64,000 nucleotides of DNA, taken from NCBI GenBank assembly GCA_028712475.1, contig JAQTQB010000004.1, forward strand, positions 67,368-131,367. Reading direction: 5' to 3'. Made by a program: the position numbers and the translations under genes. This stretch comes from Verrucomicrobiales bacterium (lineage in GTDB: Bacteria; Verrucomicrobiota; Verrucomicrobiia; Limisphaerales; UBA11358). The notes under the pieces were generated by a model. The model saw nothing but the letters and a program-made list of their open reading frames with translations, did no database searches and was not told the DNA's origin. This document shows, in pieces, positions 5,383 through 56,978 of this stretch; the first letter of the stretch is position 1; each line of letters begins with the position of its first letter.

Positions 5383-5490
5383 TCACGGTTTGATGGTTGA
5401 GGGTTGAAACAAGTTGGTTTGCGGGTTCTGAACCTGCCACGAGGCGGGCAAGAAAAATCAAACGCAACGCAAACCAACGCGGGAAAGCAT
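5383..5490. repeat. Solo relic of the 5' end of the IS4-family element (matches 8240..8347)
   Basis: tctcacggtttgatggttgagggttgaaacaagttggtttgcgggttctgaacctgccacgaggcgggca..aaccaacgcg aligns by eye (about three quarters identical) with the leader and first codons of the IS4 transposase relic at 8240..8347. The start codon is lost and there is no ORF. Confidence 0.6.
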
Positions 5491-8076: not shown

Positions 8077-8219
8077 TCTGTTGGTTTTGCCAGATTGCAA
8101 TTGACCCAAACACCTGCAATCCAAAAGCAGCGGCCATTTGGGCGGTTTACATCGCATGATTTCAATATGATTTTAATCGCAGTTCAAAGGTTTCACCATC
8201 TGTCAAATGACGGATTTTG
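8077..8219. repeat. 143-bp dispersed repeat, copy 2 of 2 (partner at 185..327)
   Basis: See 185..327: 119/143 identical. It lies directly left of the IS4-family relic. Confidence 0.85.
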
Positions 8220-8310
8220 TAGATATAATTACACAGGAGTCCCACGGGTTTAATGGTTGAGGGGTAAAAAGAGTTGGCTTGCCGCGTGTGAACCTGCCAC
8301 AAGGCAGGGG

Positions 8311-14632: not shown

Positions 14633-15688
14633 ATGTCGCAGGAAAAAAATATCGCCGTCGCGCCCGATGCCACCCTGCCCTGGGCTGGCCGCTGGTTTTT
14701 CAACCGCCGCCGGTTTGCCCTGGTTCTGATTCTCGCCATTGGAGTGACCACGCCCGTGTTGCTGGCGCTCAATTGGGATCACAAACTGTTTTTCATCACA
14801 CTGGAACTGGCCACAAAATTTCTGATTGTTTATCCGGCCATTCGCGCCAACTGCCGCTGGTTTGGGCCGGTCGTCACCCGCTTTCGCACGCAGAAAAAAG
14901 CCGTCTGGCTCACCTTTGATGACGGGCCGCATCCCGAAGACACGCCGGAGTTGCTCAAGCTGCTGAAAAAACACAATGCGCGGGCGACGTTTTTCGTGAT
15001 CGGACAGCGGGTCCAAAAATATCCGGAACTGGCGCGGGCGATCTTGCGCGACGGTCACACGCTCGCCAATCACACCCAGACCCATCCCGCCCTGCTCTTC
15101 TGGAGTTTTCTCGCAACCCGCCTGACGCGGGAGATTGATCAATGCAACCAGTCATTGCGCGAAGCCGCCGGCGAACGGACGCATCTTGGCGCTGCCCCCG
15201 CTTTCTCCCTCTCCTCCACCGGGGGAGGAGAGGGTCGGGGTGAGGAGGCATCAATGTTGTCAGTTCAAATTCCCTCTCCCGCCATAGCCGCTGTCGCTGC
15301 TCCCCGTTTGGGCGGGGTGAGGGAGTCGGGGGCGGTGCCAAGATGCGCCCCCGGCGAACCGCCCCGCTGGTTTCGCGCGCCGGCGGGCATGGCCAATCTG
15401 TTCCTGCACTTTTTATTGTGCGACCGGGACATGAAGCTCATCGGCTGGTCGGCGCGCGGATTTGACGGGCTGTTTCACAATACCGAAGCCATGGCCAGGC
15501 GCATCCTCAAATCAATCCGACCCGGCGCGATCATTCTGTTGCACGAAGGCCGGCGCGACCGGCTGGGGCGTCCGGTCAATTTGCTTCTGGCCGAAACCAT
15601 CCTGATTCGGTTGAAGGCGGAAGGCTACGTTTTCACCGTGCCTGATGAAATAGATTTTCGGGGAGAATTAAAACTCACTCCTGAATAA
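14633..15688 (+). CDS. NodB-type polysaccharide deacetylase with N-terminal TM segments, carrying a 183-bp in-frame MITE insertion
   Basis: NodB motifs WLTFDDGPHPEDT, ATFFVIG, HTLANHTQTHP, then ..RWFRAPAG.. and ..IILLHEG. About 61 codons between GER and PRWFRAPAG derive from the repeat at 15177..15350. Confidence 0.88.
   Translation: MSQEKNIAVAPDATLPWAGRWFFNRRRFALVLILAIGVTTPVLLALNWDHKLFFITLELATKFLIVYPAIRANCRWFGPVVTRFRTQKKAVWLTFDDGPHPEDTPELLKLLKKHNARATFFVIGQRVQKYPELARAILRDGHTLANHTQTHPALLFWSFLATRLTREIDQCNQSLREAAGERTHLGAAPAFSLSSTGGGEGRGEEASMLSVQIPSPAIAAVAAPRLGGVRESGAVPRCAPGEPPRWFRAPAGMANLFLHFLLCDRDMKLIGWSARGFDGLFHNTEAMARRILKSIRPGAIILLHEGRRDRLGRPVNLLLAETILIRLKAEGYVFTVPDEIDFRGELKLTPE
15177..15350. 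mobile_element. MITE-like element (about 174 bp) with terminal inverted repeats and a 9-bp target-site duplication, inside the deacetylase CDS
   Basis: The ends ggacgcatcttggcgctgcccccg and cgggggcggtgccaagatgcgcccc are inverted repeats. It is flanked by the direct repeat ccggcgaac at 15168..15176 and 15351..15359. Element plus one TSD copy is 183 bp, or 61 codons. A second copy in inverted orientation lies at 20715..20876. Confidence 0.8.
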
Positions 15689-15726: not shown

Positions 15727-17094
15727 GTGCCGAAGAAATCCACGCGCCAGCCAAAACCGCTTTACCGCCAGAAGAAGCCTAAAATTAAAGGCGATGATTT
15801 TGTCCATGCCGAGCCGATTGTTCCCGCGCATTTTGAACTCCGCGAAGACGGAACGATTGACGTTGCCAAGCGCGACGAGAAACGCGCCCCGGTTCTGACC
15901 TTCCGCGACGACACCCGCAACCTCTGGCTCTATCAAGGCAACTCCCTTGAATTGCTCGACGCCATCGCCGCCAAACATCCCGAAGGCCGGTTTGATTGCA
16001 TCTTTGCCGATCCACCGTATTTCCTTTCCAACGGAGGCATCAGTTGCCACGCCGGGCGGATGGTGAAGGTGGACAAGGGCGACTGGGACAAATCACGCGG
16101 TGCGGAAGTGAATCACGAGTTCAATCTGGAATGGCTCAAACGCTGCCAGAAAGTTTTGAAACCCAACGGCACAATTTGGATTACCGGCACGCATCACGTC
16201 ATTTTCAGCATCGGCTATGCGATGCAACAACTCGGTTTCAAAATCCTCAACGACATCGCATGGGAAAAGCCTAACCCGCCGCCGAATCTTTCCTGCCGTT
16301 ATTTCACCCACTCCACCGAAACCATTTTGTGGGCGGCCAAAAGTGAAAAATCCAAGCACCTGTTCAACTATCAGGAAATGCGCAAGGTCACGGGCAAGCA
16401 GATGAAAACCGTCTGGCGTGCCAGTGAATTTGGTGGTAGGGCGCGTCACTCCGTGCGCGCCGATGCTGGTCAGCCAGAAGACGGCGCGCAGGGGACTGAC
16501 GCGCCCTACCTTGACCCCATTTGGACGATGACTGCGCCGGGCAACGGCGAAAAGACCTTTGGCAAACATCCCACGCAAAAGCCGGTGGCGCTGGTCGAGC
16601 GTTGCATCTTGGCCTCCACACAACCCGGCGACATGGTGCTTGACCCGTTTTTGGGCGGCGGCACAACTGCCGTGGCTTGCGTCCGGCTGAATCGTGGCTG
16701 CATCGGGATTGAATTGGACTTCTCGCATTTCACGCTGGCGGCCAAACGTGCCGACCGAGAAATCATTGAACTTTGGCTGCGCGAATTCCGCGTGCGTTTC
16801 GACGTTACGATCTTTTTTCCTAATGATCTTGATCTCTTTTCTGAAACGATCAATGGATCAAGCGCGACGATGGACGACAAACCTCAAGTGCCGACCGAAA
16901 GCATTTACCACGAATGTAAATTCGTGTTCCTTTCGTGCGCCCAAGTCGAGCGCGGCGCGGTGGTTCACACGACGGTGGACGTGAGCTTGCAAGAAGCATG
17001 GGCGAAAACGCCGAATGGAAAGAAACGCGAGACGACGCACGTTGTCAGGTGTGAGACGGAAATTTTTCGTGTGGCTGAAAAGAAGCCGGTCTGA
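15727..17094 (+). CDS. Beta-class DNA methyltransferase (N6-adenine or N4-cytosine) with an uncharacterised C-terminal extension of about 100 aa
   Basis: Motif IV IFADPPYF precedes HPTQKPVALVERCI and motif I VLDPFLGGGTTAVAC. Residues after about 350 match nothing I recognise. A palindromic repeat is inserted in frame at 16435..16510. GTG start. Confidence 0.85.
   Translation: MPKKSTRQPKPLYRQKKPKIKGDDFVHAEPIVPAHFELREDGTIDVAKRDEKRAPVLTFRDDTRNLWLYQGNSLELLDAIAAKHPEGRFDCIFADPPYFLSNGGISCHAGRMVKVDKGDWDKSRGAEVNHEFNLEWLKRCQKVLKPNGTIWITGTHHVIFSIGYAMQQLGFKILNDIAWEKPNPPPNLSCRYFTHSTETILWAAKSEKSKHLFNYQEMRKVTGKQMKTVWRASEFGGRARHSVRADAGQPEDGAQGTDAPYLDPIWTMTAPGNGEKTFGKHPTQKPVALVERCILASTQPGDMVLDPFLGGGTTAVACVRLNRGCIGIELDFSHFTLAAKRADREIIELWLREFRVRFDVTIFFPNDLDLFSETINGSSATMDDKPQVPTESIYHECKFVFLSCAQVERGAVVHTTVDVSLQEAWAKTPNGKKRETTHVVRCETEIFRVAEKKPV
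16435..16510. repeat. 76-bp palindromic repeat (family B) inside the methyltransferase CDS
   Basis: ggtagggcgcgtcactccgtgcgcgcc ... ggcgcgcaggggactgacgcgccctacc forms inverted arms. The first 28 nt are identical to 36214..36241 in hsdM. Here it is translated as [25 protein letters not shown]. Confidence 0.85.
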
Positions 17095-17108
17095 TATGAA
17101 TTGCGGCG

Positions 17109-17870
17109 ATGCCGCAGCCAATCACATGGAAACAACTCGTTGCCGATGCGTTACAAAACCTCGGCGGCGAAGCCTCGCTCAAAGACATCACCGCAAAGTT
17201 AGAGAAAGATCCTCACCGGCCAGAGACCGCAACTTGGCAAGCAACAATCCGCCGTGTTGTTCGTCAATACAGTATTTTTCAATCAGTTAAAACCCAGCAA
17301 GGCTTGGCAGGTTATCGGCTTGTTCAAATGCCGAAGCCAAACCCTTCGGCGCAAAGCAAGTCAGACCCACACGGTGAGCAACAGGGAATGTTGCTGCAAT
17401 TGGGCGCTCTCTGCGGTTACGAAACATTTACCAACTCGACGGACAAGACCATTCGCAAATTTCAGGGCGAACCAATCTCAAGTTTCGCCACTGTGCGAAA
17501 TGATGCTGATGACCTGCTGGCTCTACCGCTCGAAAAAATGCGCAATACGGATGTAATGTGGATGGCTTCAGACTCGGAAGGGCTATATCCCCGTTATGCT
17601 TTTGAAATTGAGCACAGCACAAAGGTCAAAAGCGGCTTGCTCCGGCTTTTAAAGATTCCAGAGCGTTTTCCAACGAAACTATTTGTGATTGGACCTGGAG
17701 ATGAAGAGGCAGATTTATTTTCGCGTTATTTGCGTGAGTCTCCATTCAGACAACACGCGCACCGATTCCGTTTCTATCATTACAAGGAGGTTTCGGATTT
17801 TTATAAAAGCGGCATCAACTTCGATAAGCATCGCAAAAACTGGGAGATTCAATTTGCCAGCGCGTTTTAG
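17109..17870 (+). CDS. Putative type II restriction endonuclease (PD-(D/E)xK-like core, N-terminal winged-helix-like region)
   Basis: It starts 15 nt after the methyltransferase stop. A candidate nuclease motif is NTDVMWMASD..YAFEIEHSTKVKSG (D...E-x-E/K pattern). The region is AT-richer than its surroundings. The call rests on context and the motif only. Confidence 0.5.
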   Translation: MPQPITWKQLVADALQNLGGEASLKDITAKLEKDPHRPETATWQATIRRVVRQYSIFQSVKTQQGLAGYRLVQMPKPNPSAQSKSDPHGEQQGMLLQLGALCGYETFTNSTDKTIRKFQGEPISSFATVRNDADDLLALPLEKMRNTDVMWMASDSEGLYPRYAFEIEHSTKVKSGLLRLLKIPERFPTKLFVIGPGDEEADLFSRYLRESPFRQHAHRFRFYHYKEVSDFYKSGINFDKHRKNWEIQFASAF

Positions 17871-18109
17871 CTTCGTTCGCTGTTTTGCTCAAATGGGCTG
17901 AAGAGGAATGTGGCAGTGCTGACGCTTATCAACGATACCGCTATAATGTCGAAAGTTTTCCGAATGGCGGTTGCGTCTATCTGCACCGGCCAGCCTTCAA
18001 GAACAAAGGATGCGATTTTGTGGTGAACTGTGTGCCGCTGATTCCCCGCGATGATGGCAAGCAATACAAAAACCCAAGGCATGAGGATTTGGCTGGCGAT
18101 GTGAAAACA

Positions 18110-18137
18110 GTTGAGGGTTGAGGGTTGAAAGTTGAAG
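18110..18137. repeat. Heptanucleotide tandem array (4 units)
   Basis: gttgagg gttgagg gttgaaa gttgaag. Confidence 0.8.
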
Positions 18138-18193
18138 GCAAAAAGCCGGCACCTCACCCTGCCCTCTCCCCGTTCGAGGCGGAGAGAATCACA

Positions 18194-18230
18194 CAGCCGG
18201 AATGAGAAATCGTTCCGGCTGTTTTATTTT
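18194..18230 (+). terminator. Intrinsic-terminator-like hairpin plus T-run; part of a 49-bp exact repeat (18192..18240 = 19185..19233)
   Basis: 9-bp stem cagccggaa / ttccggctg, 10-nt loop, then ttttatttt. The whole 49-mer cacagccggaatgagaaatcgttccggctgttttattttaccgtgcctg recurs exactly at 19185..19233. Confidence 0.7.
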
Positions 18231-18359
18231 ACCGTGCCTGAAGAAAAAGATTTTCTCTGAAACCGCCCCTGCGCTCAATTACTTTATGACCCTTTTACAA
18301 TCAAAATAATGGCTTGCCCGCCGAATTGACGCCGCCGCAATGCTTCTCTAATCTCCGGC

Positions 18360-18659
18360 ATGGCGAAAAAGATTTCCGGCGCGAAAACTTCCGAGGCTTC
18401 CGGTGGTTCCGGTGTAGCGTCGAGCCTGCGGCTCGATAAATCCGGCCACAGGCCGGACACTACACGGCAAAAACCCAGCTCCCTCCTCGACACCCGCGTC
18501 GTTTATTGCGGTGACAATCTGGAATAGCTCGCCAAGCTGCCCAATGCCTGCGTGGATTTGATCTACATTGACCCGCCCTTCAACTCCAACCGCAACTACG
18601 AGGTGTTTTGGGGCGAGACCAAGGAGAAGCGCGCCTTTGAAGACCGCCACGAGAACTAA
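18360..18659 (+). pseudogene. N-terminal fragment of a DNA methyltransferase with an in-frame stop
   Basis: MAKKISGAK...VVYCGDNLE*LAKLPNACVDLIYIDPPFNSNRNYEVFWGETKEKRAFEDRHEN*. The DPPF motif IV region is present, TAG at 18525..18527 is in frame, and there is no motif I or C-terminal part. Confidence 0.7.
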
Positions 18660-18661
18660 AT

Positions 18662-18889
18662 GTGGAACTGGACGGCAGCCAGCACGGTTTCCCCGACCAG
18701 CGGAAACACGACGAGGAACGGGAAAAGTTTCTGCAATCGCGCGGCATCAAGACGCTGCGGTTTTGGAATTCGCATTTGCGACGCAACGCACAAAGCATCC
18801 GTGACACGATTTTCGATGAGTTGCAGGCACGCGCTCCGCGTCCCTTGCCGGAATACACCCGACCGATGAAAGTTGTAAGGAAAAGTTAG
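18662..18889 (+). pseudogene. C-terminal fragment of a DUF559 (Vsr-like endonuclease domain) protein
   Basis: (V)ELDGSQHGFPDQRKHDEEREKFLQSRGIKTLRFWNSHL matches the DUF559 core pattern (E-x-DG-x-x-H ... D..R...L...G..vlRF.N). The N-terminal part is missing. It starts 2 nt after the methyltransferase fragment. Confidence 0.6.
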
Positions 18890-18896
18890 TTGAACG

Positions 18897-19180
18897 TCCT
18901 CCCTCACCCAACTCTCTCCCCAAGGAGAGGGCTTTCGCGTCCGCCGTCCCCTTGAAAATCCGCACGCCGGGATTTGCCGGATGGTCAATCGAATCACCGA
19001 AATCGTGGCTGCTAAAATCCTCTCCTGGGGGAGAGGACACAGGTGAGGGCGGGCTAAAACACAAATTAAATTGGTTGAACAACCGCCCCCACCCCGGCCC
19101 TCTCCTCCGATGTGACCTTGCGGACAAGGCAGGGACGGCGCGCTGTGCCGTCCGGTTATCGCAGCGCGATGACCTGCCGT
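18897..19180. repeat. Cluster of short interspersed repeat modules (ctcaccc..ctctcc..ggagag type and a GC palindrome)
   Basis: Modules at about 18897..18933, 19019..19052 (inverted) and 19086..19110 share the cctcaccc..ccctctcc..ggagagg core. The same core occurs inside the MITE copies (15205..15248, 20803..20850) and at 18145..18187. Confidence 0.7.
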
Positions 19181-19186
19181 AAAGCA

Positions 19187-19223
19187 CAGCCGGAATGAGA
19201 AATCGTTCCGGCTGTTTTATTTT
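19187..19223 (+). terminator. Second copy of the terminator-like hairpin (within the 49-bp repeat 19185..19233)
   Basis: Identical sequence to 18192..18240. Confidence 0.65.
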
Positions 19224-19344
19224 ACCGTGCCTGGTGATATTTCTGCGTATATTGCCCGGCCGGACACTCAAACGCGACGGCTTGGATTTGATGCAGTTTG
19301 AGGCTGGAGCTTGAGTTCGGCGCGTGTTTCTCTTATCTGACACC

Positions 19345-20714: not shown

Positions 20715-20876
20715 GGGGGCGCATTTTGACACAGCCCTGACTCCCTCGCCCCGCCCAAACGTAGAGACGGTTGGGATGAGGGGATTTGAGATGGAAACAT
20801 TGGTGCCTCCTCACCCCGGCCCTCTCCTCCTCGGGGAGGAGAGGGAGATAACAGGGGCGGTGTCAAGCTGCGCCCC
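20715..20876. mobile_element. Second copy of the MITE-like element (intergenic, inverted relative to 15177..15350)
   Basis: gggggcgcattttgacac ... gtgtcaagctgcgcccc are terminal inverted repeats. The internal sequence aligns with the reverse complement of 15177..15350 along its whole length by eye. I found no clear TSD. Confidence 0.75.
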
Positions 20877-20887
20877 TTTGTCAGCCC

Positions 20888-22051
20888 TTGCAAAACACCC
20901 GGCCAGGCCTGTTCCGCCACCAATACATTGAACCGGCTTTTGTGCTGCGCCATGGGGTGTTCACCCCATTGGTTGCGTCAGGACGTTCCGCTTACTATCA
21001 TCCGCCAGTGTCAAGTCACGGTTATTTTCCAACGGAAGCGGAACTCGCCTTGAACGGCGCGGGTCAGACGGCGTTCCATGAACGCGCCGCCGCCGCGACG
21101 CGCGCGGAATTCGGCAGCGATGTCTTCGTGCGCGCCGTGGTGGAGGTCTCGAATTTCTGCCGTGAAAACTGCACCTACTGCGGGATGCGCCGCGACAACC
21201 GCAGCCTCGCCCGCTACCGCGCGCAGCACGAACAGATCGCCGGGATGCTGATCGAACATCGCCCCGCCAGCGTCACGGACGTGAACATCCAGACGGGCGA
21301 AGACCCGGTGGCCGTGCGCGAAGTCGTGCTGCCGCTCATCGAAACCTTGCGGCGCGAAACGTCCCTCGGCATCAGCGTCTGCCTGGGAACCTTGCCGCCG
21401 GAACTTTACGCCGAACTCCAGGCCGCCGGCGCGAGCATCTTCATCATGAAGTTTGAAGCCGGCGACGCCGCGCAATACGAGCAGTTCCAGGCGCCCGGCA
21501 CTCTGGCGGAACGGCTGCGGCACATCCGCCTGCTCGCGGAAAATGACTGGAACGTCAGTTCCGGCTTTATCGCCGGGCTGCCGGGCCAGACGCCGCGCGA
21601 CCTGTTGAAAAATCTGGAGATGGCGGGTTCGCTGCCGTTGAGCGGCTGCAGCGTCAGCCCGTTCATTCCCGGCGAGGCCACGCCGCTGGCAAAACATCCC
21701 ACGGCGAATCCAGACTGGACTTTTAATTGTGTGAGCGCGCTGCGGCTGATGCGGCCGGACTGGGTCATCCCGGCCGTGAGCGCGTTCAACCTGGCCGCCG
21801 AGGACGGCTACCGGCGCGGCCTGCGCGCGGGCGCCAACCTGGTCACGATCAATCTGACGCCGACGGACCAGCGCGGGGATTACGTCATCTACAAGCGCGA
21901 CCGTTTCATCATGACCGAGGAGCGCGTGCTGACGGCGATTGCAGCGGAAGGGCGCACGCCGTCGAAAACGGGGCTTGCGGATTTTTATCGGGACAAGATG
22001 GCCAACGGCACAGCGGCTGAAAAAAATTCAGAGACCGCAATGCAAACGTGA
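20888..22051 (+). CDS. Radical SAM enzyme (BioB/HydE/PylB-like subgroup)
   Basis: Cluster motif VSNFCRENCTYCGMRRDN (CxxxCxxC). The following segments (VTDVNIQTGEDP, ..GISVCLGTL.., ..IFIMKFEAGD..) fit the BioB/HydE-type TIM barrel. The start is uncertain: TTG 20888 abuts the MITE, and GTG near 21008 is plausible. Confidence 0.8.
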   Translation: MQNTRPGLFRHQYIEPAFVLRHGVFTPLVASGRSAYYHPPVSSHGYFPTEAELALNGAGQTAFHERAAAATRAEFGSDVFVRAVVEVSNFCRENCTYCGMRRDNRSLARYRAQHEQIAGMLIEHRPASVTDVNIQTGEDPVAVREVVLPLIETLRRETSLGISVCLGTLPPELYAELQAAGASIFIMKFEAGDAAQYEQFQAPGTLAERLRHIRLLAENDWNVSSGFIAGLPGQTPRDLLKNLEMAGSLPLSGCSVSPFIPGEATPLAKHPTANPDWTFNCVSALRLMRPDWVIPAVSAFNLAAEDGYRRGLRAGANLVTINLTPTDQRGDYVIYKRDRFIMTEERVLTAIAAEGRTPSKTGLADFYRDKMANGTAAEKNSETAMQT

Positions 22052-27556: not shown

Positions 27557-30500
27557 TCAAACCGCCCACTCGGCGCACAGCAGCCTGGCCTGCTCCAAAA
27601 CGGTTTGCGTGGCCTTCTCCTGCTTGTCTGGCGGATAGCCGTATTTGCGGAGGATGCGGCGGACGAGGACACGGATTTGAGCCTGGGCAGATTCGCGCAG
27701 CGTCCAGTCAATCGTCACGCTTTTGCGGACGTGTGAGACTAACTCGCGGGCGATGTCCTTTAATGTGGGTTCACCAAGAACTTTCACGGCGCTGTCGTTC
27801 ACTTCCAACGCGTCGTAAAACGCAACTTCATCATCCGTGAGGCCGAGGTCTTTGCCGCGCTTATGGCCTTCGCGCATCTGCTTGGCGAGTTCGATGAGTT
27901 CTGCAATGACCTGCGCCGCTTCAATGGTTCGGTTTTGGTATTTGCGGATGGTGGCTTCCAGCATTTCGGCAAACGAGCGGGATTGAACGAGGTATTTCTT
28001 CGAGCGGATTTTCAGTTCGTTGTTGAGCAGCTTTTGCAGCAACTCGACGGCAAGGTTGCGCTGGGGCAAATGCTGGACTTCCGCCAGGAACTCGTCGGAC
28101 AAAATTGAAATGTCCGGCTTCTTCAACCCGGCGGCGTCGAAGATGTCGATGACCTTGTCGGATGAAATCGCGCGGGAAACAATTTGCCGGACGGCCAGCT
28201 CCAATTCTTCCGGTGATTTTCCGCCGCCTTCGCTGATGCTCTTGGCCAGCACGGCGCGGACTTCCTGAAAGAATCCGACTTCATCACGAATCTCCAATGC
28301 CGAGTCATGCGGCACAGAGAGAGCGAACGCCTTGGACAGTTCCGTGACTGCCAACAGGTAGCGCGGCTTGCCGTCTTTTTGCTGCAACACATGCTCGGCG
28401 GCTTGTGCAATGAGCGGCAGCCTCTTTGCCGCTGTTGCCTTGGCCGCGCCCTCGTAATCAAACCCGTGCAGGATGGCGCAGACCTGCTCGTATTTCTCCA
28501 GCATCACGGCGACGGCTTCTTCCTGATCCAGCGTGATGTCGCCTTTGCCTTTGCTGTTCGTGTAATCGGCCAGCGCCTGTTTCAATTCCTCCGCCAGTCC
28601 GAGGTAATCCACCACCAAGCCGCCGGGCTTGTCTTTGAAAACCCGGTTCACCCGCGCGATGGCCTGCATCAGGCCGTGACCGCGCATCGGCTTGTCCACA
28701 TACATCGTGTGCAGGCTCGGCGCATCAAAGCCGGTCAGCCACATGTCGCGCACGATGACGATGCGGAACGGCTTCTTCGGATTCTTGAACGCTTTCGCCA
28801 GTTCCTCGCGCCTTGCTTTGCTGCGGATGTGTTGCTGCCACTCCAATGTGTCGGAAGCCGAGCCGGACATGACGATCTTCATCGTGCCTTTGTCATCGTC
28901 CTCGTGATGCCAGGCCGGGCGCAGTTTCTGGATCGCCTTGTAAAGCTCCACGCAGATGCGGCGGCTCATGCAGACGACCATCGCCTTGCCTTCCATCGCG
29001 GCGTAACGCGCTTCCCAATGCTTCACCAAATCCTCAGCCACGAGCGCGATGCGCTTGTCCGTCCCGACCATCGCTTCCAGTTGCGCCCACTTCCGGCGCA
29101 GACTTTCCTTCGTGGATTCCTCCGCATCTTCCGTCACTTCTTCAAAGTTCGGGTCAATCTTCGGGCGTTCCTCCGGCTTCAAATCAATCTTCGCCAGCCG
29201 CGCCTCGTAATAAATCGGCACGGTGGCCTTGTCCTCCTTCGATTGCAGAATGTCGTAAACGTCAATGTAATCGCCGAACACGGCCTGCGTGTTCTTGTCG
29301 CCACTTTCAATCGGCGTGCCGGTGAAGCCGATGAACGACGCCTTGGGCAGCGCATCCCTCATGTGTTTGGCGAAGCCGTCAATAAAATCGTATTGGCTGC
29401 GGTGCGCTTCGTCAGCGATGACGACGATGTTGCGCCGGTCGGATAGCAGCGGATGCTTGCCGCCTTTTTCATCGGGAAAGAATTTCTGAATCGTGGTGAA
29501 CACCACCCCGCCGCTGGCGACGTTGAGCAACTCGCGCAAATGTTCCCGGCTCTCCGCCTGAACGGGTATTTGCCGGATCAACTCTTTGCAAAAGGAGAAC
29601 GTGTCGAAAAGCTGGTCGTCCAGATCGTTGCGGTCGGTGAGCACGACGATGGTGGGATTCTCCATCGCCGGGTGCTGCACGATTTTTCCGGCGTAGAAAA
29701 CCATCGAAAGACTTTTGCCGCTGCCTTGCGTGTGCCAGATGACGCCCGCCCGTCTGTCGCCGATTTGATTCGTAGCAGCCGACGTGAGTCGGCTCTGACT
29801 TTCCGCTGGGGAATTAGAATGAGCGGACTCACGTCCGCTGCTACCAGTTAAAGCAACCCCCGCCGCCTTCAACGTAGATTCCACCGCCTTGTTGACTGCG
29901 TGGAATTGGTGATAGCCCGCCAGCTTCTTCACGACCTTTTCGCCATCATCTTCAAAGACGATGAAGTTGCGGACCAAGTCCAGCAGACGAGCCTTCTCGA
30001 ACACGCCTTTGAGCATGGTTTCCAGTTGCAACGAACCGGGCGGCACAAGCTCCTTGCCGGTGATGGTGCGCCACGTCATGAACCGCTCCCAATCCGACGT
30101 GACCGTGCCGAGCCGCGCTTCGTGGCCGTCCGAAATCACCAGCAGCGCGTTGGAGTGGAACAGCGACGGGATTTGCGCCTTGTAAGTCTGGAACTGGTCG
30201 AACGCCTTGCGGATGGTGGCCTGTTCGTCCGCAATGTTTTTGAGTTCCAGCAGTGCCAGCGGGATGCCGTTGATGAACACCACTACGTCAGCGCGGCGGT
30301 TGAAATGGCCTTCCTCCACTGTGAATTGATTGACCGCGAGGAATTCGTTGGCTTCGGGATTCGCAAAATCAATCAGCCAGACCTTGTCGTGAACGATTTG
30401 CCCTTCGCGGTTGCGAAACTCCACGTCCGCGCCTTCAACAAGCAGGCGATGAAACGCGCGGTTGTTTTCGATGAGCGTCGGATGGCTGATGAGCCGGAGT

Positions 30501-53036: not shown

Positions 53037-56000
53037 TTACTTGGCCAAAACCAGATCCGGCTTCGGTGATTCTTTGCTGTCCACGTCTCGTTGCTCCTGA
53101 ATCGCCATCCAGATCGCCTCGCAAGTCGCGGGTGACGCTAGCGCCACCTCACCTTTGCCTGAACCAAACGCCGCCACGGCATCACGGATCGCCTCGCGCA
53201 CCGAGATGGCCAGCATCAACGGCGGTTCGCCCACGGCTTTGCTGCCATGAACAACGCTTTTCTGCGTCGCGTTCTTGAGCAAGGTCACTTTGAAGATTTG
53301 CGGCGTGTCACCGATGGACGGGATTTTGTAGGTGTCCGGTGAATGCGTGAGCAAAACCCCTTGGTCATCCCACTTCAATTCCTCGGCCGTGAGCCAGCCC
53401 ATGCCTTGCACGAAGCCGCCTTCGATCTGGCCGCGATTCACGCCTTCATTCACCGAGTCGCCCACGTCATGCAAAATGTCCACGCGCAAGACGCAGTGCA
53501 TTCCCGTGAAGCCATCCACCTCGACCTCCGTCACCGCCGCGCCGTTTGCAAAATAATGAAACGGCTTGCCATGTCCCGCCGCGCGATCCCAATGAATCCC
53601 CGGCGTCGCATAATATCCCGTCGCCAGCAAGCTCACGCGCGACAAATAGGCTTTCTTCACGACATCGGCGAAGGAAATTTTCACGTCTGGCAGCGTGCGA
53701 TGAAAAGAAAATCCGTCGGCGAAAACCAAATCCTCCGCAGCAGCCGGCGTAAGGAGGCTCTGAGCGCTTTCGTTTTCCGCTTTTGATTTGAGCCTCGTCA
53801 CCTCGGCTGCTACGAGTTCAAGAGCCGCCGGCGTCAGCCGCGCTCGCAAAATTTCGCACGCATTTTTCACCGCCGCGCCGTTCAAGTCCGTGCCCGCGCT
53901 CGCCGCCGTGGCGGAAGTGTTCGGCACTTTGTCCGTGCTGGTCGGCATCACGCGGATATTCTCCAGCTTCACGCCGAGCGTTTGCGCCGCGATCATCGCC
54001 ACGTTCGTGTGCAATCCCTGCCCCATCTCCGTGCCGCCGTGGTTCAACTGCACCGTGCCGTCCTGATAAATCAAAATGAACGCGCCCGCTTGATTCATAT
54101 GCGTGACGGTAAAACTGATGCCGAATTTCACCGGCGTGATGGCAATGCCTCGTTTGGTGTGAGGATGCCTTGCGTTCCAGTCAGCGATTTCCTTGCGGCG
54201 TTTTTCCAGCTCGGAAGTTTTTTTCAACTCGTGCCAGATGGTCTGGATCCGATTGTCTTCAATCTCCTGCCCGTAGTGCGTGGTGTTCGTCTCACCGCTG
54301 CCACGGTAAAGGTTTCGTTCGCGGACAACTTCCGGTGGCAGGCCGAGCCTGCGCGCGATACGGTCGAGGATTTCTTCCATGACCAGCATGCCCTGCGGCC
54401 CGCCGAAGCCGCGAAATGCCGTGTTTGATGACAGATTTGTTTTTGCAACCTGCCCGCGAAACTCCACCGCCGGAATATAATACGCGTTGTCGAGATGGAA
54501 CAGCGCGCGGTCGGTCACGGCCTGCGACAAATCCTGCGACCAGCCGCCATTGGAAGTCAGATGAACTTGCGCCGCCTGCAACAAACCGTCCTTGTCAAAA
54601 CCAACATTAAACTTCGCGAGAAACGGATGGCGATGGCCGGTGAGCGCCATGTCCTGATCGCGATTGAACCGCACGCGCACCGGCTTGCCGGTATGATGCG
54701 TCGCCAGCGCGGCCAGCGCGGCAGGTGTGGCCGCCTGCGTTTCCTTGCCGCCGAAACCGCCGCCCATGCGCGGCACTTGCACCACCACCTTGTTCGCGGG
54801 CAGATGCAACACATGAGAAATCACCTGCTGCACCTCCGACGGATGCTGCGTGGACGAAACGACGAACACCGACCCGTCCTCGCCGCGTGTCGCATGCGCC
54901 GCCTGCGTCTCCAGGTAGAAATGTTCCTGACCGCCAAGTTCAAACTCGCCTTCAATTACCAGTGGCGCAGCGGACAAGCCTTTTACTGAATCACCGCGCC
55001 GGATAAAGTTGGGTTCGTTGTGAAAACTCCCTTTTGCCACCGCATCGCGCAATGTGAGAATCGGCGCCAGCGGTTCATATTCAACGACGACCTTCTCCGC
55101 CGCCGCGCGACACGTCTCCTGCGAATCTCCGACGACGAGCGCGACAAGCTGGCTGTGGAAGAGAACTTCGCGCGACGCCAGCAACGGCTCGTCGTGCTTC
55201 GTGCCAACGTCGTTCTCGCCCGGAATGTCCTCGGCAAACAGCACGGCTTTGATGCCGGGCATCTGGCGCGCGGCGGTCGCGTCGCATTTGATAATTTTCG
55301 CCCGCGCGTGCGGCGAGCAGACGGGCCAGACTTCGAGCATGCCGCTGGTCTGGTCATCCACATACATCGCCTCGCCTGTGACGTGTTTGTGCGCGCTTTC
55401 GTGGGGCTGTGCCTGGAGCGCGGACTTCAGGCCGCTTCGACATTCGAGCGGTGACGCGGCATGAACGCTGCGCTCCGATTCGCCGGCGAAAAATTTCCCC
55501 AGCAGACTCGCAATCAAACCGCTGCGGTATTCCGCCGTGCCGCGCACGTCAGAGATGGGCGTGAACTCCGTCCGTAATACCGGCAACGCGCGCTGAATCG
55601 TTTCTTCACTCCAAATTTTGCCAGCCAATGCGGCTTCTGTTTTCCGTGCCCGCGCAGGCATGGCGGCAACGCCGCCGTAAGCGAGCCGCACATGACGCAC
55701 GATGTTCTGTTTATCCAAATCCACCACGAAACACCCGGCCACGGTGCTGATGTCCATCTCGCGGCGTTTGGAAACTTTGAACCACTCCGCCTTGCGCGTC
55801 AGTCCCGCCGCCGCGCCGCCGCGCGGGATGATGATGGTTTTGAGGACTTCGTTTAGTTGCAGCGCAGTCTTTCGATAGGAAATAAAAAAGTCACTGATGG
55901 GCAACGTGCGTTCCCCAGATTCGGATGCAAGCACAACCCTTGCATCCAGCGCGAGCAGCACGGGCGCGCTGTCGCCGATGGGCGAGGCGATGGCGAGGTT

Positions 56001-56978
56001 GCCGCCCATCGTGGCGCGATTACGGATCTGCCGCGAGCCGAACACGCAGAGCATGTCGCCCAGCACGGGAAATTCTTCGCCGAGCCGGTCTTCAATTTCC
56101 GTGAGCGTGACCGCAGCGCCGATGTGCCATTCGCTGGCGGCGCGGCGGATTTTGTTCAAATCCGAGACGGCTTCCACGGAAATCAGCGTGGTGAATTTTT
56201 TGTAGCGCTTGGTGATGTCGAGTCCCATTTCCGTGGCCCCGGCAATGATGCGCGCCTCGGGAAATTTCTTCAGCAGGACGAGAAGTTTGTGCAGCGTGGC
56301 AGGGCGGAAAAAATTTTCCCCGTTAAATTCGTATGCGGCCGCGCCGAGCTTCGCGTCCGATTTTTTCAGGCGGTCGGCAAACATATCTTCGTAGGAGCCG
56401 ACGTCAGGAGGCTCTGACTGTTTCCCATTTCCGCTTTTGATTTGAGCCTCGTCACCTCGTCTCCTACAGGAAAAAGCTTCCACCGCCGCGTCACGGATTG
56501 AACGATACCCGGTGCAGCGGCAGAGATTGCCGGCAAGTTGTTCGTCGAGATCGCCGTGCGTGTGAAGGTCGTCGCGATAGTAGCCCTCGAACATCGAGCA
56601 GATGAAGCCGGGCGTGCAATAGCCGCATTGCGAGCCGTGAAGTTCGACCATGGCGTGCTGCACCGGATGTAATCCCGAAAGCGCGGAGTGCGGAGTGCGG
56701 AGTGTGGAATTACAAACACCTTCAGCGCTTACCACCTCGCGGCCCGCGAGCAGGCAGACGGGCATGAGGCAACTGTTCACCGCGCGATAAGTTGGCTTGC
56801 CGTTCGCGCCGCGCTCGACAATGGCGACGGAGCACGCGCCGCAATCGCCTTCGGCACAGCCTTCCTTCGATCCGGTGAAGCCGGAACTGCGGAGAAATTC
56901 AAGCAGCGTCGTGTTGGGAGAAGTGTTCTCAACGCAAACCGGCTGGCCGTTCAAAATGAATTCAAATGCGCCGGACAT
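53037..56978 (-). CDS. Xanthine dehydrogenase, single polypeptide (2Fe-2S + FAD + molybdopterin domains fused)
   Basis: 1313 aa. Motifs: GCAEGDCGACSV and HGSQCGYCTPGF (the two 2Fe-2S centres), the FAD domain (..IIAGATEMG..GGNLAIASPIGD..) and the Mo domain (..GGGFGGKE.., ..FRGFGGPQG.., ..GTEMGQG.., ..KAVGEPP). Three repeat-derived in-frame segments are present. Confidence 0.93.
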   Translation of the reverse strand: MSGAFEFILNGQPVCVENTSPNTTLLEFLRSSGFTGSKEGCAEGDCGACSVAIVERGANGKPTYRAVNSCLMPVCLLAGREVVSAEGVCNSTLRTPHSALSGLHPVQHAMVELHGSQCGYCTPGFICSMFEGYYRDDLHTHGDLDEQLAGNLCRCTGYRSIRDAAVEAFSCRRRGDEAQIKSGNGKQSEPPDVGSYEDMFADRLKKSDAKLGAAAYEFNGENFFRPATLHKLLVLLKKFPEARIIAGATEMGLDITKRYKKFTTLISVEAVSDLNKIRRAASEWHIGAAVTLTEIEDRLGEEFPVLGDMLCVFGSRQIRNRATMGGNLAIASPIGDSAPVLLALDARVVLASESGERTLPISDFFISYRKTALQLNEVLKTIIIPRGGAAAGLTRKAEWFKVSKRREMDISTVAGCFVVDLDKQNIVRHVRLAYGGVAAMPARARKTEAALAGKIWSEETIQRALPVLRTEFTPISDVRGTAEYRSGLIASLLGKFFAGESERSVHAASPLECRSGLKSALQAQPHESAHKHVTGEAMYVDDQTSGMLEVWPVCSPHARAKIIKCDATAARQMPGIKAVLFAEDIPGENDVGTKHDEPLLASREVLFHSQLVALVVGDSQETCRAAAEKVVVEYEPLAPILTLRDAVAKGSFHNEPNFIRRGDSVKGLSAAPLVIEGEFELGGQEHFYLETQAAHATRGEDGSVFVVSSTQHPSEVQQVISHVLHLPANKVVVQVPRMGGGFGGKETQAATPAALAALATHHTGKPVRVRFNRDQDMALTGHRHPFLAKFNVGFDKDGLLQAAQVHLTSNGGWSQDLSQAVTDRALFHLDNAYYIPAVEFRGQVAKTNLSSNTAFRGFGGPQGMLVMEEILDRIARRLGLPPEVVRERNLYRGSGETNTTHYGQEIEDNRIQTIWHELKKTSELEKRRKEIADWNARHPHTKRGIAITPVKFGISFTVTHMNQAGAFILIYQDGTVQLNHGGTEMGQGLHTNVAMIAAQTLGVKLENIRVMPTSTDKVPNTSATAASAGTDLNGAAVKNACEILRARLTPAALELVAAEVTRLKSKAENESAQSLLTPAAAEDLVFADGFSFHRTLPDVKISFADVVKKAYLSRVSLLATGYYATPGIHWDRAAGHGKPFHYFANGAAVTEVEVDGFTGMHCVLRVDILHDVGDSVNEGVNRGQIEGGFVQGMGWLTAEELKWDDQGVLLTHSPDTYKIPSIGDTPQIFKVTLLKNATQKSVVHGSKAVGEPPLMLAISVREAIRDAVAAFGSGKGEVALASPATCEAIWMAIQEQRDVDSKESPKPDLVLAK
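53738..53813. repeat. Palindromic repeat (family C) inside xdh, copy 1
   Basis: gcagcagccggcgtaaggaggctc .. tttccgcttttgatttgagcctcgtcacctcg gctgctac. The 32-mer at 53774..53805 is identical to 56428..56459. It is translated as ..VAAEVTRLKSKAENESAQSLLTPAAA.. Confidence 0.8.
56392..56467. repeat. Palindromic repeat (family C) inside xdh, copy 2
   Basis: gtaggagccgacgtcaggaggctc + spacer + gagcctcgtcacctcgtctcctac. It shares the exact 32-mer with copy 1 but sits in a different codon phase (offset 2654 nt, which is 2 mod 3). It is translated as ..RRGDEAQIKSGNGKQSEPPDVGSY.. Confidence 0.85.
56683..56710. repeat. Heptanucleotide tandem array (4 units) inside xdh
   Basis: gcggagt gcggagt gcggagt gtggaat. 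It is translated on the minus strand as ..NSTLRTPHSALSG.. between the two Fe-S motifs. Confidence 0.85.

Follow-up and report, generated by a model that had tools for sequence, protein, structure and literature searches.

A miniature transposable element, probably derived from an ISKra4-family insertion sequence, in frame within a NodB-type deacetylase gene of a Verrucomicrobiales bacterium

Positions 67,368 to 131,367 of contig JAQTQB010000004.1 (GenBank assembly GCA_028712475.1), from a Verrucomicrobiales bacterium, form the 64,000-nucleotide stretch of DNA analysed here, hereafter termed the window. It carries a gene for a predicted membrane-anchored NodB/CE4 polysaccharide deacetylase, within which lies a 174-bp segment that leaves the reading frame open. 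We put at roughly 0.82 the probability that this segment is a miniature inverted-repeat transposable element (MITE) derived from a Mutator-like DDE insertion sequence (IS) of the ISKra4 family, residing in frame in the deacetylase gene as a near-neutral passenger. The assignment draws on the anatomy of the element, on orthologous genes in which the site is empty, on dispersed relatives flanked by their own target-site duplications, and on full-length ISs bounded by the same inverted repeats. Throughout, WIN designates the window's copy of the gene or element, L001, L017 and similar labels designate loci found in scans, and P0001 and similar labels designate orthologous proteins.

Anatomy of the element and its host gene

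The element lies between two perfect copies of the 9-bp sequence CCGGCGAAC and is bounded by 23-nt terminal inverted repeats that are complementary at 20 of 23 positions (Table 1). Together with one copy of the duplication it adds 183 nt, exactly 61 codons, and the host open reading frame (ORF) stays open across it, with RWFRAPAG and LLHEG in frame downstream. An earlier note, made from the window's sequence, had described the inverted repeats, the duplication, the length of 61 codons and the open frame with its downstream motifs, and all of them are present. Between the inverted repeats, the stems of hairpin 1 are conserved throughout the family alignment, and a 12-nt stretch peculiar to the WIN copy breaks the left arm of hairpin 2; the hairpin stability of the element is -115 kcal/mol as RNA. 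The element is not attributable to chance: the window has four matches to the inverted-repeat pattern where 0.08 would be expected and two to the 24-nt core pattern where 0.00 would be, the chance probability of a perfect flanking 9-mer is ~4e-6, and the fold stands well apart from shuffled sequences (z = -5.5 as RNA, -5.6 as DNA). Apart from the host ORF, the 174 bp contain only a mechanical antisense ORF, and the 61-aa peptide has no match in Pfam. Neither a whole-window scan of Rfam at gathering thresholds nor an E-value scan of the element returned a family, the only matches being to miRNA-precursor hairpins far below threshold, and the element contains no promoter-like or terminator-like signal. 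Readings of the segment as an intein, intron, terminator or promoter were rejected, each being without any supporting feature.

The host ORF matches Pfam PF01522 (E 7.9e-31, 107 bits against a cut-off of 23.1 bits), and its NodB motifs TFDDGP, HTQTH, RAPAG and LLHEG are intact and conserved in the orthologue alignment; by its Pfam score and catalytic motifs (TFDDG, HxxxH, RxPxG, LxH) the product is assigned to the NodB/CE4 deacetylases. The insert is positioned between the long helix that follows HTQTH and the strand that bears RAPAG. In an AlphaFold2 model computed from 56 sequences, residues 181-245 have a predicted local distance difference test score (pLDDT) below 50 and no secondary structure, and confidence is also low for residues 249-266, just past the insert. 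Solved NodB structures match the protein on either flank of the insert, and in PDB 7y51_A the matched segments meet at residues 106 and 104. The 61-residue insert is predicted to form a disordered loop just before the RxPxG motif, in agreement with the earlier proposal that it enlarges a loop of the catalytic domain.

Empty sites in orthologous genes

Comparison with orthologues, which the earlier note had called for, reveals the site in its empty form. Among the 120 best homologues, ~118 are ~282 aa in length, and 55 aligned orthologues are without exactly the 61-residue insert, reading ...LREATGEPPRWFRAP... in this region; the clean empty site is ...REATGEPPRWFRAP... At the DNA level, four syntenic contigs (L051-L054) carry the target once only, for example as GCCACCGGCGAAGCGCCC, with the general form CCGG(C/T)(G/A)A(A)(C/A/G). 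An insert at this site was found in a single orthologue, P0001 (loci L001-L003; the protein occurs on 5 contigs), which is not the closest relative; there it belongs to the same subfamily and occupies the same nucleotide position in the same orientation as in WIN. The P0001 insert does not argue against insertion, since it can be recognised as a copy of this MITE that has inverted repeats of its own and a duplication in degraded form (CCGGCGCAC and CCGGCGAGC). The right junction of the WIN insertion had 0 matches in the metagenome scan, in a collection that also lacks L001's own contig.

The element family and its probable parent insertion sequence

A scan of 185,579 species genomes for the element core returned 47 loci, mostly in Verrucomicrobiota metagenome-assembled genomes (MAGs), with 37 strong nhmmer hits in loci from at least 25 MAGs. 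The canonical architecture consists, in order, of a 23-nt outer inverted repeat, GTTTT, hairpin 1 (CTCCCTCTCCTCC, loop, GGAGGAGAGGG), CGGGGTGAGGAGGCA, a spacer, TCAAATCCCCTCACCCC, hairpin 2 (AACCCTCTCCCCG, loop, CGGGGAGAGGGAG) and the second 23-nt outer inverted repeat. Three canonical copies (L001, L017 and L043), each of 162 bp, add 171 nt (57 codons) together with the 9-bp duplication; L017 lies inside a perfect duplication, GGTGCGGTC. Another copy of the same subfamily resides in the window itself. Its intergenic location and inverted orientation, both stated in the earlier note, are borne out, and the boundaries given there (20715-20876) move inward by 1-2 bases to 20717-20875. The 9-mers that flank this second copy agree at only 6 of 9 positions; it lies ~50 nt past the ATG, at about 20668, of an uncharacterised ORF on the minus strand, and directly upstream of a radical-SAM gene (20888-22051).

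Scanning metagenomes for the consensus inverted repeat yielded at least 120 loci. Soil and peat metagenomes contain at least 10 elements, 1372-1389 bp long (~1.38 kb), that are bounded by the same inverted repeats, GGGCGCATCTTGACACTGCCCCC, and each of these contains one ORF of 370-408 aa matching NCBIfam NF033572, the ISKra4 family transposase (E 8.7e-55, 186 bits, model positions 58-413 of 422), with weaker matches to ISLre2 and ISH6. The transposase is carried by ~19 loci. Short elements with these inverted repeats number 67, span 105-576 bp and fall into at least 37 internal cargo types; 44 unique short elements have 9-bp duplications that agree at 8 or 9 of 9 positions. Since these 44 independent elements share the repeats and have such duplications, the element qualifies as a genuine MITE, and the identity first proposed for it stands on its inverted repeats, its 9-bp duplication, its many dispersed copies and an autonomous partner with the same inverted repeats. 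No target-site consensus emerged over the 44 sites (at most 0.2 bit per position), and three insertion sites unrelated to one another (WIN, L043/L174 and L102) share the motif CCGGC(A/G)AA(C).

Several further observations concern the wider family. The ten full-length IS copies (L106 238-1613, L098 291-1678, L139, L144, L146, L148, L080, L108, L166 and L170) are 70-88% mutually identical and lie at ten different sites. The cargo types among L055-L174, at least 37 in number, are unrelated, each made of its own palindromes within the same 23-bp inverted repeats, and about half of the cargo clusters have a length divisible by three (135, 141, 159, 162, 192 and others) against one third expected. 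Single or rearranged units of hairpin plus CGGGGTGAGG occur at L007, L021-L024, L032, L040-L042, L045 and L048, in MAGs labelled Chloroflexota, Nitrospirales, Planctomycetota and Proteobacteria, and a ~40-nt match to this module, at 86-87% identity, lies in unannotated DNA of 9 E. coli genomes (hits H1-H8); the module is much wider in distribution than the MITE.

With these components, a pathway for the origin of the insert can be proposed. A transposase supplied in trans would recognise the 23-bp terminal inverted repeats, and a 9-bp staggered cut at insertion would give rise to the CCGGCGAAC duplication, the mobilised element carrying between its inverted repeats a ~107-nt double hairpin in place of the transposase gene. 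It would have landed in a short loop between the helix after the HxxxH metal motif and the RxPxG strand, where it would be translated as a Gly/Ser/Pro/Glu-rich, unstructured surface loop of 61 residues and be tolerated as a near-neutral passenger, with enzyme activity presumably retained.

Coding compatibility and genic occupancy

Among 31 copies, the core is free of stop codons in 97% for sense phase 0, 84% for sense phase 2 and 55% for antisense phase 1, and in 3-26% for the other three frames. Calculated from this frame openness, ~47% of random genic insertions would leave the host ORF open; about half of genic insertions would thus keep the ORF because the canonical added length is 57 codons and several frames are stop-free. 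In Verrucomicrobiota the family is frequently intragenic, with in-frame copies in many housekeeping genes; those with host domains on both sides include genes for a cardiolipin synthase and several helicases (Table 1). Cases with a domain on one side only, or near a protein terminus, are OppC (four MAGs), HemA and an ORF6N protein (L043, which has the full element and duplication). Of 16 validated genic loci, ~11 read the element in sense phase 0, a bias that is marginal once frame openness is taken into account (~p = 0.07, calculated). In older genic copies such as L014 and L029 the outer inverted repeats have decayed or lost part of their length, which is expected of immobilised copies.

A profile of the encoded peptide (..SLSSPKGGEGRGEEA..IPSPQPSPRLGGERE..) matches 226 cluster representatives among 1.84 billion proteins, mostly short ORFs, with matches that include CCA/polyA polymerase, UvrD and MoeA proteins; the figure of 226 is a lower bound, as insert-bearing proteins cluster with insert-free ones. 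The consensus peptide matched 15 short ORFs only in a 5.8-billion protein index, and these served as profile rows. For the other cargo types, ORF-spanning was discarded as evidence of genic residence, being unreliable where some apparent ORFs cross inserts that are not a multiple of three. Contigs L015, L018, L031 and L050 are labelled Bifidobacterium/Bifidobacteriaceae though their copies are of the Verrucomicrobiota type, and their OppC and UvrD-like contexts match Verrucomicrobiota MAGs; P0013 is labelled Paceibacterota. These labels are probably binning or labelling errors.

It is conceivable, if rather doubtful, that the MITE lineage is adapted to coding sequence, by an added length of 162 + 9, stop-free frames and a benign disordered peptide, and that it has remodelled dozens of Verrucomicrobiota housekeeping proteins, splitting the LigA zinc finger and striking hot spots that would include the deacetylase site, hit twice.

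Age, selection and the number of insertions

Between WIN and L001 the gene flanks have a ratio of nonsynonymous to synonymous divergence (dN/dS) of 0.22 at a dS of 0.53, against a dN/dS of 1.26 for the insert. Gene pairs that include an insert-bearing member range from 0.13 to 0.23, and insert-free pairs from 0.11 to 0.19. At 16% divergence from the family consensus, the WIN copy has been long resident in the gene. The insert is thus old, purifying selection has continued to act on the gene, and the peptide, taken as a whole, is free of constraint.

Whether WIN and L001 descend from one insertion or two was approached through a protein neighbour-joining (NJ) tree, neighbouring genes, flank partitions and element-to-element distances. 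For a single event speak the element copies, which are mutually closest (86.7%, against at most 78% to all others) and share derived states, including a paired TTGGC/GCCAAGA change in both inverted repeats. For two events, or for loss of the element, speak the host genes: the WIN gene is 85% identical to those of insert-free P0002, P0003 and P0004 and 77% identical to that of P0001; NJ bootstrap support is 88% for WIN with L051 and 1% for WIN with L001; L001 is nearest to WIN in no gene partition; and over the 50 codons 3' of the site the third-position distance from WIN is 0.08 to insert-free L054 and 0.22 to L001. The neighbouring genes give a star-like tree, and the phylogeny is star-like and reticulate. 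We lean slightly towards independent hits at a hot spot followed by selective filtering; one old event followed by precise losses, and an ancestral polymorphism sorted among lineages with additional recombination, are the other two candidate scenarios. At L001, a cellulase gene (PF00150; 4393-6390) lies between a GT2 gene and the deacetylase, in a position where the window and L051-L053 have none.

Alternative explanations

Several observations weigh against the interpretation of the insert as a near-neutral, ISKra4-derived MITE. The transposase score of 186 bits is below the NCBIfam equivalog cut-off of 205 bits. Neither the window nor the 54 genome and orthologue loci contain a transposase or full-length IS, so that the IS can only be presumed to co-reside in the source genome. 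None of the ten full-length IS copies, all on metagenome contigs, has a target duplication, unlike most MITEs with the same inverted repeats, which have one of 9 bp; a plausible cause is that short reads were assembled into chimeras across a multicopy IS. With regard to near-neutrality in particular, the hairpin-1 stems and central core differ by only ~4% (about 3 of 74 nt) between WIN and L001, against 25% at four-fold sites; the inverted repeats differ by ~17%. This low core divergence hints at constraint beyond neutrality; possible causes are nucleic-acid constraint, a younger age, and copies that converted one another.

The same conservation is one argument that the insert has been exapted, its peptide being kept by selection as a flexible linker or interaction loop, or its hairpin as a functional RNA or DNA. 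The predominance of one frame among the validated genic loci and the retention of the element in three LigA and four OppC orthologues point in this direction as well. We nevertheless regard exaptation as unlikely: the overall dN/dS of the insert exceeds one, WIN has lost the left arm of hairpin 2 through its 12-nt change, most orthologues work without the insert, the frame bias is marginal, the host proteins are mutually unrelated, and gene conversion or recent insertion could produce the conserved core. That the insertion instead killed the deacetylase, leaving the ORF as a young and undecayed pseudogene, is quite improbable. The insertion does lie 6 residues upstream of the catalytic RxPxG motif, and model confidence is low just past it, but the copy is old, with its 16% divergence and 12-nt internal change, and yet the 351-codon ORF and the checked NodB motifs are intact. 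The dN/dS of WIN against insert-free genes (0.13-0.23) is the same as that of insert-free pairs, and a second lineage, L001, keeps an intact gene with the insert.

Two further explanations are given very little weight. The insert might be absent from the protein, either cut from the mRNA or skipped by the ribosome with the identical GGC GAA codons of the two duplication copies as take-off and landing sites. Identical 9-nt sequences around a very stable hairpin would suit such bypass, for which T4 gene 60 and the mitochondrial 'byp' elements are precedents. Skipping, however, would relax selection on stop codons and frameshifts, yet all validated genic copies are stop-free; at the deacetylase, the one site with a known empty form, the added length is a multiple of three, including the 12-nt indel between WIN and L001, and intergenic copies do depart from multiples of three. 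It is similarly a very slim prospect that the segment is a repetitive extragenic palindrome (REP), or a REP doublet forming a hairpin (REPIN), moved by a REP-associated tyrosine transposase (RAYT) of the HUH type and not a DDE-dependent MITE. The cargo consists of two hairpin units in inverted arrangement, single units occur in other phyla, and REPs inside genes are already known (PMC3733652). Against this, 9-bp target duplications occur at 44 sites, a DDE insertion sequence has the same 23-bp inverted repeats, and neither a GTAG nor a CGTC tag is present at the ends of the hairpin unit; the likeness to a REPIN may concern only how the cargo arose.

Relation to known systems

Rickettsia palindromic elements (RPEs) are short palindromic repeats that reside in frame in unrelated, functional protein genes at fold-compatible positions (PMC10969869, PMC3733652). 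They and the MITE are both ~100-170 bp long, palindromic, inserted in frame many times and predicted to encode a family-specific peptide. Their sequences, however, appear to be unrelated, and the MITE hosts are free-living soil and peat Verrucomicrobiota, whereas the RPE host is an obligate intracellular alphaproteobacterium. To our knowledge, RPEs also have no clear inverted repeats, 9-bp duplication or identifiable autonomous IS, unlike the MITE described here. The parallel with RPEs that the earlier note had drawn therefore stands as a functional likeness (recurrent in-frame residence, conserved peptide) and not as family membership; an in-frame translated MITE is an already known kind of element, and the present one is RPE-like in its behaviour.

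With respect to the parent IS, Guérillot et al. reported that the inverted repeats of prokaryotic Mutator-like elements, the ISKra4 group among them, measure 18-39 bp and have a terminal C, and that the direct repeats are 8-9 bp long (PMC3942029). The MITE resembles this group, termed p-MULT 4, in that its 23-bp inverted repeats end in C and match those of the 1.38-kb IS with its NF033572-matching transposase, and in its 9-bp direct repeats. Verrucomicrobia is not among the p-MULT 4 phyla listed in that paper (PMC3942029). In contrast to some ISKra4 members, which target positions upstream of sigma-A promoters, the 44 MITE sites show neither such a pattern nor a strong consensus, and a further difference is that the same inverted repeats here surround at least 37 cargo types.

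Enterobacterial repetitive intergenic consensus (ERIC) sequences and REPs are likewise palindromic repeats that are occasionally translated in frame. Many intragenic repeats were reported by Di Nocera et al. in replication and repair genes (PMC3733652), a class of host that LigA, UvrD, HrpA, OGG and Ada match here. The size, tag and duplication-free, RAYT-mediated movement of REPs do not apply to the MITE. REPs are 20-40 bp long and tagged with GTAG or CGTC, and RAYTs are believed to move them without duplication.

We found no paper on such elements in Verrucomicrobia. New here are the probable parent IS family, the rule of coding compatibility, the wide range of housekeeping genes occupied in a free-living phylum and a possible hot spot. 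That palindromic mini-transposons settle in frame within genes has mostly been viewed as an oddity of Rickettsia and a few other bacteria, and the same behaviour now appears in a large, free-living environmental phylum; because the parent transposase, clear inverted repeats and a 9-bp duplication can be identified, the mechanism is experimentally tractable. The family also suggests a simple survival rule for genic MITEs, namely an added length divisible by three together with stop-free frames, and it carries a warning for annotation, as low-complexity loops of 35-61 residues in Verrucomicrobiota proteins can be transposon scars and not lineage-specific domains.

Table 1. Features of the deacetylase locus, the second copy in the window, and genic copies elsewhere. 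Positions refer to the window unless a locus is named; for the host loci, from the SNF2 helicase down, Pfam domains were confirmed on both sides of the insert.
Feature	Position or locus	Strand	Details
Host ORF, membrane-anchored NodB/CE4 polysaccharide deacetylase (predicted)	14633-15688	+	351 aa including the 61-aa insert
Left target-site duplication CCGGCGAAC	15168-15176	+	9 bp
MITE	15177-15350	+	174 bp, between the two CCGGCGAAC copies
Left terminal inverted repeat GGACGCATCTTGGCGCTGCCCCC	15177-15199	+	3 positions off the IS consensus GGGCGCATCTTGACACTGCCCCC
Hairpin 1 of cargo: CTCCCTCTCCTCC, loop, GGAGGAGAGGG	15205-15234	+	Encodes ..SLSSTGGGEGRG..; RNA and DNA folds
Central part: CGGGGTGAGGAGGCA, spacer, CCCTCTCCC, copy-specific 12-nt stretch	15235-15299	+	Alignment with L001 and family
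Hairpin 2 remnant: CTCCCCG TTTGGG CGGGGTGAGGGAG TC	15300-15327	+	
Right terminal inverted repeat GGGGGCGGTGCCAAGATGCGCCC	15328-15350	+	Reverse complement GGGCGCATCTTGGCACCGCCCCC
Right target-site duplication CCGGCGAAC	15351-15359	+	Perfect 9-bp copy
Insertion junctions of the WIN element			GAAGCCGCCGGCGAACGGACGCATC and GATGCGCCCCCGGCGAACCGCC
Second MITE copy, same subfamily, intergenic	20717-20875	-	159 bp; nhmmer E 1.2e-36
SNF2 helicase	L004		Insert in frame
Cardiolipin synthase	L014		Insert in frame
HrpA	L015		Insert in frame
GT21 glycosyltransferase	L016		Insert in frame
LigA	L028, L030, L033 (three MAGs)		Insert between the two cysteine pairs of the C4 zinc finger
GH57 branching enzyme	L029		Insert in frame
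OGG	L039		Insert in frame
Class I methyltransferase	L034		Insert in frame
Ada/Ogt	L037		Insert in frame
UvrD/AddA-like helicase	L018		Element in antisense orientation
DUF7133/cytochrome c protein, 1344 aa	L008 2091-6122		Two or three in-frame copies or half-copies

Other features of the window

Downstream of the deacetylase, a ~3.6-kb stretch (15727-19323) that starts with an N6/N4 DNA methylase gene (15727-17094, PF01555) parts the deacetylase from Methyltransf_11, radical-SAM and KAS genes, which in the syntenic loci L051 and L053 directly follow it. This stretch has the appearance of an inserted island and may be a restriction-modification system. At 18192-18240 and 19185-19233, 993 bp apart, lie the two copies of a perfect 49-bp direct repeat, CACAGCCGGAATGAGAAATCGTTCCGGCTGTTTTATTTTACCGTGCCTG, which is terminator-like, with a hairpin and a T run. 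Elsewhere in the window, a GTAG-tagged inverted doublet (..GTAGCAGCCGACGTGAGTCGGCTC .. GAGCGGACTCACGTCCGCTGCTAC..) recurs at 29764-29852, 53733-53813 and 56387-56467; this family resembles a REPIN and has no relation to the MITE. Finally, the window has two further repeat pairs, one of 143 nt at 83% identity (185-327 and 8077-8219) and one of 62 nt at 81% identity (5387-5448 and 8247-8308).

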